The notes: generated by a model not told the origin, from the sequence alone. Shown: positions 1,287 through 5,325, numbered from the stretch's first letter. The stretch: DNA of 6,631 nucleotides from a virus (IMGVR_UViG_2695420412_000003:1-6631); one strand, 5' to 3'. Numbers and translations are program-made.

Positions 1287-1757
1287 CTAATAAAACACCC
1301 AGTTTTCTGTTTCTTGGTTGTGTCCAAAGTTATATTCAATATCTGGTATTGATGTATCAATATTCTTCATCCCATCAACAAGAGTTGATACAACAGCCAA
1401 ATCTTGTTTGATTCTCATTAAATGGTATTTCTTCCGGTGCAATAAACTCTCAATGGCAAGTTTCTTCGTTGGGAATGCAAAAGATCTTTCTGCATTTTTT
1501 GCTACTTTCTTAATTGCATATCTATTTCTCCTTTGTTTCCATTCCTGTAACCACTGATTTGGTGCTGGTTTAAAATTAACAATCCAATGCGCAGGAACCA
1601 ACCATGCATAATGCTCTGTCTGATGAAAAGCTATATATTGAAGTGCGAATATTTTTATCCCATCTTCTTCAACTGTCGCCTGGAATCTCCAGAAAACAGG
1701 CATTCCATCATGTTCAGTTTCTGATTCAGGAAAAGGTACGCTCCATGATTTTGTCAT
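1287..1757 (-). CDS. Hypothetical protein, 156 aa, no family recognised; accessory ('moron') candidate in the N-cIII interval
   Basis: Complete ORF with a GAGGTGA Shine-Dalgarno about 5 nt upstream of the ATG at 1755-1757. The region is visibly AT-rich relative to the flanking lambda-like genes. An intrinsic terminator lies downstream. The plus-strand ORFs overlapping it look like antisense artefacts. Confidence 0.7.
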   Translation of the reverse strand: MTKSWSVPFPESETEHDGMPVFWRFQATVEEDGIKIFALQYIAFHQTEHYAWLVPAHWIVNFKPAPNQWLQEWKQRRNRYAIKKVAKNAERSFAFPTKKLAIESLLHRKKYHLMRIKQDLAVVSTLVDGMKNIDTSIPDIEYNFGHNQETENWVFY

Positions 1758-1815: not shown

Positions 1816-2088
1816 TCACCTCGCCGTCAGTTGTTTTGATTTCCGGTAGCCTGCCGCGTAAAGAGCTACGTTCGGAAGACAAGTTGAACCTTCATATTTT
1901 CTGGTCAACGTTGTCAGAGTTATAACTTCTGCTCTCATTGCTGGTTTGCGCTTGCATTGCAAGACCACTCGTGAAGGGGTTGGCCTGTGTAGCTTGTCGG
2001 AGCTGATCGCCTCCTGACTTTGCAGATTTGCGCGACGAGCTCTACGGCGAGAAGCTGCGGTGCCTTTAAATTCTGTTTTTCTGGACAT
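1816..2088 (-). CDS. N: N-family transcription antiterminator (91 aa from the internal ATG of the 1816..2160 ORF)
   Basis: The ATG at 2086-2088 is preceded by GGGAGGA. The N-terminus MSRKTEFKGTAASRRRARRANLQSQEA carries an arginine-rich motif typical of lambdoid N proteins and resembles the phage 21 class rather than lambda. The gene sits directly downstream of a nutL-like boxA/boxB, in the canonical position. Confidence 0.7.
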   Translation of the reverse strand: MSRKTEFKGTAASRRRARRANLQSQEAISSDKLHRPTPSRVVLQCKRKPAMRAEVITLTTLTRKYEGSTCLPNVALYAAGYRKSKQLTAR

Positions 2089-2186
2089 GGATTCCTCCCG
2101 AATAAACTTTGGCGATGCAATCTCGAAGCTCCTCCTGAGACGGTTGCTTCGGCATTGCATCCCACAGCTTATGTGGTTGGGTGATC

Positions 2187-2277: not shown

Positions 2278-2320
2278 ATAGTACGATATGTGCTTTACAA
2301 GATCAATACAATTTGTTGTA
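2278..2320 (-). promoter_or_regulatory. Candidate pL promoter with overlapping oL operator(s)
   Basis: Minus strand shows TTGATC (plus 2301-2306) as a -35, a 17-nt spacer, then TACTAT (plus 2278-2283) as a -10. This places the transcription start about 45 nt upstream of boxA. An adjacent inverted repeat TACAA-N4-TTGTA (2307-2320) shares the TTGTA/TACA motif found in the cI-cro intergenic region. Assigned by eye only. Confidence 0.3.
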
Positions 2321-2493
2321 AGTTGGCGTGGTTTTTTATAACGCTTTGTATTTAATAGTGTTGTTTTTTAGCGTGGATGTATTGTCTCGGCGATGTAAGG
2401 AGAGATCAGAATTGCGTGGTTTAGTGGGTTGCATCTATTTATTTTTCAATAAATATAATTGGTTATGTGTTTTTAGGTGGGCGAACGTGAGGC

Positions 2494-2519
2494 AAAGAAA
2501 ACCCGGCGCTGAGGCCGGG
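2494..2519 (-). terminator. Intrinsic terminator ending the cI-to-250-aa-gene leftward operon
   Basis: cccggc (2502-2507), loop gctgag, gccggg (2514-2519); on the minus strand the hairpin is followed by UUUUCUUU (plus 2494-2501). It begins 5 nt after the stop of the 250-aa ORF (2525-2527). Confidence 0.6.
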
Positions 2520-2524
2520 TTGTA

Positions 2525-3277
2525 TTATGCTGCAAGTCTCTTAATCCAAGTCTCTCTTTTGGAGAATGGTAGAACTTGGCTTGATTCATGGAAGAGTAAG
2601 GAGAGTTGTTGCATTTGATCACCAATTGCTTCGCTGTCTATAACAACAAATCTGTTGTTATACTCCTCACTTGAAGCTTTAAGATCAATTAGTTTCCCAA
2701 GCAATGAGTAAGCACTATTCCAGCTTCCTCCGTGTTTCACGCTTGATGTAAAAACGTATTTAGGTATGTCGGTTTTTATTGTTACAGGGACGGTAATTTG
2801 ATGTCCACTCAAGCCATATACGTTTTCACGAAGAGAAAGTGCGTCTCTAAGCTCTGTGTGATATAGATAATCAATAACCATACTTTCAAACTTTTCAGCT
2901 TGAACTGGCTGATACCAGTCTAACGACAAAGTTGATGCGAGTATACCAGCTCTAATTATGTTCGATGTAATCGCACCGACATCCTTTTCTGTTGCCCAAG
3001 CAATGATTTCTCCTCGAGCATTGAGTTCTGCGCCTTCTTTAAGCAGTAATTGTCGTATCTCATCAAGTCGTTTTTTGGTAAGCGAGATCCCTCTTGCCTC
3101 CATATTCATTAAGGCATCGCATCTGTCACTAACTAAATACCTACCATTGACTTCACGGATAAAGGCACCGACATGCTCTCCATCATCACAGTAAGTGAAT
3201 GGACTGATAATTCTCAAGGTCTTGCCTATTGGATGGCATTCGAAACCTAGTTGTGAGATCACTGTTGAGCACATCAT
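2525..3277 (-). CDS. Hypothetical protein, 250 aa, no family recognised; distal gene of the two-gene cassette at the rexAB-equivalent position
   Basis: Complete ORF whose ATG (3275-3277) overlaps the upstream gene's TGA (3274-3276) in an ATGA arrangement, indicating translational coupling. AT-rich. No obvious Walker, nuclease or transmembrane motif seen by eye. Followed immediately by an intrinsic terminator. Confidence 0.75.
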   Translation of the reverse strand: MMCSTVISQLGFECHPIGKTLRIISPFTYCDDGEHVGAFIREVNGRYLVSDRCDALMNMEARGISLTKKRLDEIRQLLLKEGAELNARGEIIAWATEKDVGAITSNIIRAGILASTLSLDWYQPVQAEKFESMVIDYLYHTELRDALSLRENVYGLSGHQITVPVTIKTDIPKYVFTSSVKHGGSWNSAYSLLGKLIDLKASSEEYNNRFVVIDSEAIGDQMQQLSLLFHESSQVLPFSKRETWIKRLAA

Positions 3278-3831
3278 ATTCCAAACCCCATTTGCCCCGA
3301 CTCATCTTCAAGCGGTAAAGGTATTCTCCCAGAGTAAGTTATGTTCAGATGTTTACAGAAGTAATTCCAATACCCTACCAGGTCATCTGGGTTTATGTCA
3401 TCTTCGATTGGAAACGCTATTCTATCACTATAGTATCCAGCTTCTTCATAGTATACATGGTAGTGAGCACCGTAAATGATATCTTGGTACTTCGGATGAT
3501 CGACCTTGTAACTATTCGTGTGTTTGTCAAAGTGATAGGTATCTACCGCGAAAACCCTCTTGTTATGATAGAAAGCAATAATATTTATTTTAGGGTAAGA
3601 AATCGGGTCATCAGGTTCTGAATCCTGATCTGGTTTCCATTTCAGTTCAAACTTTAGCCCTTGTATAGGTATACAATCCTCATCCAAGGGGATGATATGA
3701 GCTTGTAGCCACATATCAGAGCGACTTGGTTTCTGTTTCCATTTAACGCCAGAAAAGTTAACTATTTTTTTACAATAAAGTACTTTATCAACTTCTACTT
3801 GGCTTGGCTGATAATCATCTATTTTTGCCAA
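3274..3831 (-). CDS. Hypothetical acidic Tyr/His/Asp-rich protein, up to 185 aa, no family recognised; proximal gene of the rex-position cassette
   Basis: The ORF opens 39 nt downstream of the cI stop. The first codon in the track is TTG (3829-3831) with a GGGCGG-like Shine-Dalgarno about 8 nt upstream. The first in-frame ATG is at codon 40 and has no Shine-Dalgarno, so the start is uncertain. Coding-like composition continues from 3831. Confidence 0.65.
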   Translation of the reverse strand: MAKIDDYQPSQVEVDKVLYCKKIVNFSGVKWKQKPSRSDMWLQAHIIPLDEDCIPIQGLKFELKWKPDQDSEPDDPISYPKINIIAFYHNKRVFAVDTYHFDKHTNSYKVDHPKYQDIIYGAHYHVYYEEAGYYSDRIAFPIEDDINPDDLVGYWNYFCKHLNITYSGRIPLPLEDESGQMGFGI

Positions 3832-3870
3832 TGTTTACCGCCCTGTAAATTGTAGATAAAAGTGGTTTCA

Positions 3871-4566
3871 TCACCCAAACGTCTCTTCAGGCCATTGGCT
3901 GGCGATAACTTTCCCCACAACGGAACAACTCTCATTGCATGGGATCATTGGGTATTGTGGGTTTAGTGGCTGTAGAAACACCTGACCGCTATCCCTGATC
4001 AGTTTCTTGAAGGTAAATTCATCACCACCAAGTCTGGCTATGCAGAAATCGCCGGGCTCAACAGCTTGCTCAGGGTCAACCAGAATTAACATCCCGTCAG
4101 GAAAGCTGGGTTTGGAACCTGTTGGTGCGGTCATTGAGTTACCTTCAACCTCAAGCCAGAATGCAGAGTCACTGGCTTTTTTGGTTGTGCTTACCAATCT
4201 CTCCGCATCGCCTTTGGTAAAGGTTCTGAGTTCTGGAGAGAACATCCCAGCCTGAACATGAGAAAAAACAGGGTACTCATATTGTTTTTTAACTGGGGCC
4301 GATGAGTATTCGCCAACAGGTGAAAATGTCCCGTCGTGGTTGAATGATATGTTATCAATACCAAGGTATTTAAACACCACACCAATATCACTAAGAGATG
4401 GATGACGAGATCCGCGCAACCAGTGTCCAATCCCACCCTGCGTCATACCTAGCTCTTCGGCTAACTTCTCTTGAGTTATGCCGAGCTCTTTCATTCTGGA
4501 TCTAGCCAGTTCATACCATTTCATTTTCATGTCCTTATTATTACGCTTTGTACTGGAATCATCCAT
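3871..4566 (-). CDS. cI: cI-type prophage repressor: heterologous N-terminal HTH domain fused to a lambda-identical LexA-like S24 autocleavage domain
   Basis: From about [28 protein letters not shown]... to ...[12 protein letters not shown] the C-terminal half matches lambda cI as I recall it, including the GNSM serine motif. The N-terminal part ([52 protein letters not shown]...) is a different HTH domain. The ORF track starts at a TTG (4570-4572); I place the start at the ATG at 4564-4566, which has no Shine-Dalgarno and may be leaderless as in lambda pRM. The start is uncertain by a few codons. Confidence 0.9.
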
Positions 4567-4639
4567 GCACAATGTGTATTTTTACTTGTATTCGTAAAGT
4601 ACATATTGTATTTTTATTCGTGTTTACTATGGAGGGCAT
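4567..4639. promoter_or_regulatory. oR/pR/pRM divergent control region between cI and cro
   Basis: A 73-bp AT-rich intergenic region lies between divergent repressor genes. It contains the inverted repeat TACTT-N9-AAGTA (4583-4601) and TACA-N3-TGTA (4600-4610), plus repeated TTGTATT motifs. Candidate pR elements are TTTACT (4581-4586) and TATTGT (4604-4609); GGAGGG (4631-4636) is the cro Shine-Dalgarno. Confidence 0.5.
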
Positions 4640-4911: not shown

Positions 4912-4978
4912 GTTCCAAGATATCTGACCAACTAAGGCCATATGCGTTTCCACGCATACCTTTCAACTAACTATTCAC

Positions 4979-5019
4979 TATTGGAAATCTTAAGAAATGG
5001 AAAGAACAAGTTACAGCAA
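4979..5019 (-). promoter_or_regulatory. pRE-like cII-activated leftward promoter overlapping the cII start
   Basis: Minus strand reads TTGC-TGTAAC-TTGT (plus 5006-5019), then 13 nt, then TAAGAT, then TTCC. This mirrors the lambda pRE layout as I recall it (TTGC-N6-TTGC, about 12 nt, AAGTAT) and spans the complement of the cII ATG. Confidence 0.5.
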
Positions 5020-5293
5020 ACTATCACAGCGTGACGTTGATCGCGCAGAAACAGATTTACTTATCAATCTGTCAGCTATTACCCAGCGCGGTCTGGCAAA
5101 GATGATTGGCTGTCATGAATCGAAGATAAGCAGAACGGACTGGAGATTTATTGCTTCGGTCTTGTGTGCTTTCGGAATGGCATCAGACATAAGTCCGATT
5201 AGCAGGGCTTTTAAGTATGCGCTTGATGGACTCACCAATAAAAAACGCCCGGCGGCAACCGAGCGTTCTGAACAAATCCAGATGGAATTCTGA
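4997..5293 (+). CDS. cII: cII transcriptional activator (98 aa), chimeric: heterologous N-terminal region with lambda-identical C-terminus
   Basis: The C-terminal LTNKKRPAATERSEQIQMEF matches lambda cII as I recall it; the N-terminal about 75 residues differ. Position between nutR and O is canonical. Confidence 0.85.
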   Translation: MERTSYSKLSQRDVDRAETDLLINLSAITQRGLAKMIGCHESKISRTDWRFIASVLCAFGMASDISPISRAFKYALDGLTNKKRPAATERSEQIQMEF

Positions 5294-5314
5294 GGTCATT
5301 ACTGGATCAATCCA
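5238..5314 (-). ncRNA. oop: OOP antisense RNA (antisense to the 3' end of cII), with its intrinsic terminator
   Basis: Minus strand of 5238-5314 reads ...GAUUGAUCCAGUAAUGACCUCAGAAUUCCAUCUGGAUUUGUUCAGAACGCUCGGUUGCCGCCGGGCGUUUUUUAUU, matching lambda OOP RNA from memory, including the GC hairpin and U-tract (plus 5241-5262). Ends are approximate. Confidence 0.7.
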
Positions 5315-5325
5315 CAGGAGTCATT

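Follow-up and report, generated by a model that had tools for sequence, protein, structure and literature searches.

A repressor-linked two-gene cassette in place of rexAB: a candidate exclusion module of temperate phages

In phage lambda, the slot downstream of the repressor gene cI is occupied by rexA-rexB, the textbook prophage exclusion locus, whose products have also been reported to play a role in the lysogeny switch. The cargo of this slot varies, with rexAB in lambda, a four-gene set including the kinase gene stk between cI and the tM terminator in 933W, and bstA in BTP1; Stk excludes phage HK97. According to Owen et al. (2021, PMC8585504), the interval between cI and N is a mosaic hotspot, in which rexAB and the abortive-infection gene bstA are found, and BstA of the Salmonella prophage BTP1 exemplifies a defence gene found directly downstream of the repressor in diverse Gram-negative prophages (PMC8585504). 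At the protein level, two other systems come into consideration. PDC-M24, i.e., the cassette FAM_00129>>FAM_00065, figures among 145 phage defence candidates listed as untested (Payne et al., 10.1101/2024.01.29.577857), the PDC systems being defined as embedded in BREX, DISARM or type I restriction-modification loci (10.1101/2024.01.29.577857), while the DefensePredictor screen (bioRxiv 10.1101/2025.01.08.631726) yielded a validated two-gene Escherichia coli defence system, DS-6, of which one protein (DS-6B) features a DUF1829 domain. Here, we examine a viral DNA stretch of 6,631 nt (IMGVR_UViG_2695420412_000003:1-6631, taken as a whole and hereafter termed the window), a lambdoid immunity region carrying N, orfB, orfA and cI on the minus strand and cro, cII and O on the plus strand, in which the slot is filled by a cassette of two genes, orfA and orfB (2525-3831). 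On balance, we regard orfA-orfB as a probable lysogen-expressed, repressor-co-transcribed, two-protein exclusion/defence module of temperate phages, which would most likely serve to keep out other phages or to abort their infections.

Alignment with lambda delimits the cassette sharply. DNA identity, which is ~93% over the C-terminal half of cI, is lost at the stop codon of this gene (window 3870) and returns (90%) at window 2521, which corresponds to the base after rexB in lambda, and the 1348 bp between these junctions, where no DNA similarity to lambda was detected, stand in place of rexA-rexB. Because the homology ends and restarts at exactly these points (the cI stop codon and the terminator), the cassette replaces rexA-rexB precisely, and its assignment to the rexAB slot by an earlier note, written from the sequence alone, is borne out. 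Like RexA-RexB, orfA-orfB consists of two genes on the cI strand, with identical slot and junctions, but it differs from them in protein sizes and predicted folds, in lacking a RexB-like membrane protein, and in showing no sequence similarity, neither product matching the RexA or RexB families in Pfam, PHROG or PADLOC (at E-values up to 1, 0.1 and 1, respectively). Similarly, the stk cassette of 933W is another cargo that fills the interval from cI to this tM terminator, but it has four genes, including a eukaryotic-like protein kinase, that are unrelated to OrfA and OrfB. As for BstA, it is also prophage cargo downstream of a repressor, presumably co-transcribed with it and followed by a Rho-independent terminator, yet it is a single protein, to which no similarity was detected in Pfam, PHROG or PADLOC, the presence of a BstA model in those libraries being unverified. 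In a search of phage records, about 150 matched the terminator end of the query alone (its first ~70 nt for those listed) and only seven contained the whole cassette. That the same slot carries rexAB, the stk cassette and bstA makes a defence role plausible for orfA-orfB.

The cassette begins 39 nt downstream of cI (3871-4572, minus strand, from open reading frame listing and Pfam; HTH_3 and Peptidase_S24 domains), for which RefSeq places the start 6 nt further downstream (231 amino acids). No terminator-like site was found in the spacer (3832-3870, minus strand), which forms the right-hand mosaic junction with lambda, and a weak Shine-Dalgarno-like GGGCGG stands 6 nt ahead of orfA (3274-3831, minus strand, 185 amino acids). 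The listing confirms both open reading frames announced in the earlier note, along with their orientation and distance to cI, except that orfA starts with a TTG (3829-3831) and not with an ATG. Also as described there, the stop codon of orfA and the start codon of orfB (2525-3277, minus strand, 250 amino acids) overlap in an ATGA (3274-3277, minus strand), which suggests translational coupling. The transcript would end at a strong intrinsic terminator (2490-2521, minus strand) located at the left-hand mosaic junction, where a hairpin (2521-2500) with an 8-bp stem (six G-C pairs) and a 6-nt loop is followed by a T-run (TTTTCTTTG). This terminator starts 3 nt past the TAA stop of orfB, or the 5 nt first reported if two A-T pairs are left out, and it is ~82% identical over ~119 nt to the 933W element annotated as “tM, terminator for pM transcript”, its identity to what follows rexB in lambda being 90%. 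Its existence was correctly noted, but not its position “just before oL/pL”, since an operator-like sequence resembling oR, which probably marks the oL/pL region, lies ~200 nt beyond (2282-2300, minus strand; 15-mers with two mismatches to 4592-4610). The cassette is more AT-rich than its flanks, as had been stated, with 39.4% GC vs. 46.0% in cI (48.2% in its lambda-like half) and 50.1% in N (1816-2160, minus strand, from open reading frame listing and family search). Owing to the common strand, the short gap, the lack of an intervening terminator and the shared tM-type terminator, this layout fits co-transcription with cI, and no internal repeat, RNA family or extra promoter rose above chance within the cassette. 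Finally, orfA and orfB are real genes under purifying selection: when compared with homologues in seven genera, their ratios of nonsynonymous to synonymous substitution rates (dN/dS) do not exceed 0.2, with dS saturated, and orfA evolves faster than orfB.

The two genes behave as a single unit, as had been supposed. In all 80 IMG/VR loci that we examined, A is found directly upstream of B, abutting or overlapping it, and no homologous pair has lost this contact. An S24 repressor gene stands upstream, on the same strand, in 72 of these loci, the repressors falling into 29 clusters at 70% identity, and the one locus inspected among the eight others has a short helix-turn-helix repressor there. 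The occurrence of such pairs next to the repressors of other prophages, which the earlier note had left as a check, extends to several bacterial orders. Overlapping pairs with A in first position are present in GTDB genomes of Izhakiella, Yersinia, Providencia, Xenorhabdus, Pantoea and Thorsellia, with a cI-like gene just upstream in four loci (including those of Yersinia, Providencia and Pantoea), and the order repressor-A-B is also observed in Rodentibacter (Pasteurellaceae), in one metagenomic lineage, in a prophage of Helicobacter pametensis and in a D3-like phage of Pseudomonas. Even for OrfA relatives at 21–25% identity, the next gene always encodes a DUF1828 protein, and an S24 repressor gene lies directly upstream in three of the four loci. 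In Pseudomonas, the OrfA homologue is unannotated (phage VB_PaD_phPA-G, PP083311.1, ~14515-15033); it shares an ATGA overlap with an annotated DUF1828-like gene and is separated from the CI-like repressor gene by a 216-amino-acid gene. As for the orfA/orfB junction carried by a 518-bp contig of Actinomadura rugatobispora JCM 3366, 64–82% identical to the E. coli proteins, it most likely corresponds to an enterobacterial contamination of the assembly.

At face value, a pair placed right after the immunity repressor, in hosts ranging from Enterobacterales to Helicobacter and next to no fewer than 29 types of repressor, could be a lysogeny-control accessory that modulates the repressor switch, either stabilising lysogeny or aiding the lytic switch, without targeting foreign phages, and the C-domain of OrfB (see below), which has a DNA-binding-type fold devoid of catalytic residues, would suit such a role. 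Yet a function bound to one repressor-operator system is unlikely to move among 29 repressor types, the slot is dispensable and interchangeable (rexAB, stk cassette and either allele of the present cassette behind the same cI), and the PDC-M24 relatives are catalogued in restriction-modification and BREX loci, away from repressors. We consequently hold this explanation to be unlikely.

The interchangeability of the slot is illustrated by a second allele of the cassette (180 and 258 amino acids), whose products are 42% (A) and 52% (B) identical to those of the first. Allele 2 is found both behind the cI of the window and behind a genuine lambda cI, with the same terminator in either case (CP138399.1, ED1a CU928162.2), which indicates that cassette and immunity specificity reassort independently. 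Between the two alleles, DNA identity drops from ~0.9 to ~0.55 across the cassette and rises back at the terminator. In 5426 complete E. coli genomes, we counted allele 1 in 239, allele 2 in 61 and lambda-type rexAB in 99, so that the cassette (~300 genomes) is about three times commoner than the textbook exclusion locus whose slot it fills. Allele 1 is carried by Nissle 1917 and by DSM 30083 (the species type strain), as well as by the phages ev017, ev207, PhiR57_1, PhiR63_2 and Stx1_121427 (Stx1a-converting), whereas allele 2 carriers include O104:H4 outbreak strains. This frequency in both commensal and pathogenic E. coli, combined with a cargo of the expressed-in-lysogen type that is AT-rich relative to its flanks, might also be expected of a “moron” serving host fitness or virulence (through a metabolic or stress function) and unrelated to phage-phage conflict. 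However, both proteins are cytoplasmic, with neither signal nor membrane segments, the hosts differ widely in lifestyle (Xenorhabdus, Pseudomonas, Helicobacter, Pasteurellaceae), and the sole family-level matches are to a defence candidate, all of which makes this explanation the least probable of those that we considered.

Regarding the proteins themselves, neither has a transmembrane-like segment (maximum 19-residue Kyte-Doolittle hydropathy of 0.45 for OrfA and 1.19 for OrfB), in agreement with the lack of RexB-like character pointed out initially, and both are modelled as soluble and globular. That they are neither RexA nor RexB holds, but the statement that they could be assigned to no known family was too strong: OrfB is a DUF1828 protein (PF08861; 33.5 bits over residues 26-110, for a gathering threshold of 22), a domain matched by all eight of its deep homologues, and the pair corresponds to PHROG 2017 (OrfA) and PHROG 1960 (OrfB), both of unknown function. 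NCBIfam returned no match for either protein, and searches of PDB sequences with single-family and deep profiles gave nothing significant.

The AlphaFold model of OrfB (mean predicted local distance difference test, or pLDDT, of 84) comprises two domains. Structural comparison of the model assigns the N-domain (residues ~1-121), i.e., DUF1828, to a YbjN/type III secretion chaperone-like fold, and the C-domain (~129-250) shows a restriction-endonuclease-like alpha-beta-beta-beta-alpha-beta core. These are likenesses at the fold level, with ~10% identity to YbjN/type III secretion chaperones on the one hand and to PD-(D/E)xK nucleases (the nuclease domains of Can2/Card1, PspGI, NgoMIV, Cfr10I) on the other hand. 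Unlike the latter, OrfB lacks the conserved acidic/lysine catalytic set: no D...(D/E)xK was found in the C-domain, where the start of beta-2 (S157-G158-H159) is not acidic and beta-3 is devoid of (D/E)xK. The absence of a nuclease motif had been correctly noted, even though the fold is that of a restriction endonuclease. With catalytic residues either absent or unconserved, an active classical nuclease was ruled out. The residues that are invariant among deep homologues are C3, C14, D32, D51, E90 and W121 in the N-domain, and G155, S157, G158, P164, T177, G194 and D198 in the C-domain. Since the fold is present and the catalytic set is not conserved, the C-domain is probably, as far as the model can tell, a degenerate, non-classical module that binds nucleic acid or a ligand. 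We also considered DUF1829 as the C-domain of OrfB, and rejected it for lack of a match up to an E-value of 10. OrfB nonetheless recalls the DUF1828/DUF1829 proteins, DS-6B among them, through its DUF1828 N-domain and through one distant homologue with a marginal DUF1829 match (E = 0.049), but the DUF1829 protein of DS-6 is paired with a HipA-like kinase and not with an OrfA-like protein.

OrfA is acidic and rich in Tyr, His and Asp, as first described (isoelectric point of 5.3; Asp 10.8%, Tyr 8.6%, His 4.3%), and its model (pLDDT of 82) is mostly beta, with no fold that could be recognised when compared to the PDB and to predicted structures of viral proteins. An apparent profile match to SAKe6, a designed Kelch protein (8pjr, E = 2.9e-12), was discarded as an artefact, because it sums six identical repeats, each with an E-value of ~33 or more. 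A set of 1.84 billion representatives contained 20 clusters (50% identity) of this small family, and DUF6978 (PF22398) is matched at E < 0.01 by five of the 15 family representatives (best 1.1e-4). The conserved residues of the family are K22, W31, R92, D97, H104, N106, G121, H123, H125, F158 and P173, among which the invariants R92, D97, H104-x-N106 and G121-x-H123-x-H125 are polar and catalytic-looking. Moreover, the C-terminal tail (~173-185) is conserved (P173, E175, S178-G179-Q180, G182) though modelled as disordered, a combination that resembles a docking peptide. Each of the 42 distinct IMG/VR alleles (79 loci) starts orfA with GTG or TTG, as do seven of the eight genome loci checked, ATG being seen only in the Thorsellia and Helicobacter versions. 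It is unusual for a non-ATG start to persist over such distances, which suggests that dosage is controlled; taken with the overlap of A and B, likewise conserved, this start points to a low and fixed A:B dosage.

These same properties, i.e., small, overlapping and translationally coupled genes, a conserved weak GTG/TTG start of the upstream gene evoking a tight control of stoichiometry, and an invariant catalytic-looking polar cluster in OrfA, would also be those of a toxin-antitoxin-like addiction module that stabilises the prophage, with any anti-phage effect being secondary. We find this explanation improbable, if a little less so than a moron, inasmuch as both proteins exceed the size of typical type II pairs and searches of Pfam, NCBIfam and PADLOC linked them to no known family of toxins or antitoxins. 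The loss of A alone is further tolerated at least at one IMG/VR locus (IMGVR_UViG_2526164629_000012, ~2447-3001), where a frameshifted orfA lies beside an intact orfB in a sequence otherwise identical to allele 1.

The PADLOC comparison proposed in the earlier note returned matches to PDC-M24 components alone, so that “unrecognised” overstated the novelty of a cassette of which a related pair is already catalogued as a defence candidate. OrfB matches PDC-M24B nearly end to end (E = 6.1e-10; residues 2-248 vs. model positions 4-253 of 256), and distant OrfB homologues match it with E-values of 1.8e-15 and 2.7e-13, their OrfA partners again matching PDC-M24A alone, and weakly. OrfA itself matches PDC-M24A weakly (E = 4.8e-4, 18 bits, residues 104-163); with the 15 family representatives, three PDC-M24A models were matched, two of them by three representatives each and the last by one (best E = 2.4e-4), and the alignment of one distant member spans almost the full model (E = 1.1e-3). 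Like PDC-M24, orfA-orfB consists of two adjacent genes in the same order and on the same strand, with a small A followed by a B of ~255 amino acids. Unlike PDC-M24, embedded in BREX, DISARM or type I restriction-modification loci, the orfA-orfB branch sits after prophage repressors, and the similarity of OrfA is so partial that standard calling would probably miss the locus. Accordingly, orfA-orfB appears from its sequence to form a divergent lineage within a two-gene superfamily, catalogued but uncharacterised, that also contains PDC-M24, with OrfA below the formal thresholds. That both proteins match only PDC-M24 components, in the same gene order, makes a defence role plausible, even if PDC-M24 itself offers no mechanism. 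Validated defence families were sought as well, and none was matched in Pfam, NCBIfam, PHROGs (function) or PADLOC.

If orfA-orfB is indeed an exclusion/defence module, it could work as follows. In the lysogen, cI, orfA and orfB would be transcribed together up to the tM-type terminator, OrfA being made at a low level owing to its GTG/TTG start and OrfB through translational coupling, and the two proteins would form a complex. The conserved disordered tail of OrfA may dock onto the chaperone-like DUF1828 domain of OrfB, whose degenerate restriction-endonuclease-like domain would bind nucleic acid or a phage trigger without classical DNA cleavage, thereby making OrfB the sensor. The Arg/Asp/His-x-Asn/His-x-His cluster of OrfA would then be a metal-dependent catalytic or effector site unleashed on infection. 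In its most ambitious form, i.e., a mechanistically new abortive-infection/exclusion system in which the sensor OrfB holds and releases a beta-rich, metal-dependent effector, OrfA, which has spread from Enterobacterales to Helicobacter as repressor-linked cargo, and which would also explain part of the resistance of Nissle 1917 to lambda and Stx (Shiga toxin) phages, we consider this scenario possible but rather doubtful.

Several points weigh against an exclusion/defence function. The strict repressor linkage is equally expected of lysogeny control, no homologue was found in a plasmid search, and none was seen in a defence island among the loci examined. OrfB lacks the PD-(D/E)xK catalytic residues, with H159 and K173 varying in distant homologues. 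The link of OrfA to PDC-M24 is weak and covers ~40% of the PADLOC model, its DUF6978 score (22.0 bits) is below the gathering threshold (29.6), and PDC-M24 is itself an untested candidate. Our literature search recovered no functional study of DUF1828, DUF6978, PDC-M24 or the RefSeq accessions, nor any experiment on the expression, protection or toxicity of the orfA-orfB family.

One published result might seem to bear directly on the cassette. Bury et al. (2018, PMC5987069) ascribed the resistance of Nissle 1917 to lambda and Stx phages to prophage 3 of this strain, of which a “phage repressor (pr, EcN_1294)” was reported to cut the plating of lambda and Stx phages ~200-fold (PMC5987069). However, the quantitative PCR and cloning primers of that study map to cII (window 4951-5320; cII at 4997-5293), and not to cI or orfAB. 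Hence, the result was set aside as evidence on the cassette, and the published plating effect is probably due to CII over-expression.

The niche and the logic of repressor-linked prophage defence cargo are already known, and the protein family is catalogued under DUFs, PHROGs and a distant PADLOC candidate; the interest of orfA-orfB would rise if a function and a new mechanism were demonstrated. Should it be a defence system, it would add to the immune repertoire a protein pair without characterised relatives, provide a first function for DUF1828 and validate a PADLOC candidate family, with a bearing on phage therapy, on how Stx phages spread and on probiotic strain engineering. Two regulatory features are amenable to testing, namely the strict linkage to repressors, maintained over deep divergence, and the conserved non-ATG start codon of orfA.

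Two other features of the window deserve mention. Just beyond N, a 156-amino-acid open reading frame (1287-1757, minus strand) belongs to PHROG 1636 (unknown function) and corresponds to L0079 of 933W; this position, a second variable cargo slot, is taken up by sieB and ral in Nissle 1917 and PhiR57_1, whose immunity region is the same. Finally, the Rfam family Lambda_thermo (the cIII thermoregulator RNA element), a known lambda feature, matches at 1047-1105 on the minus strand with 88.5 bits.

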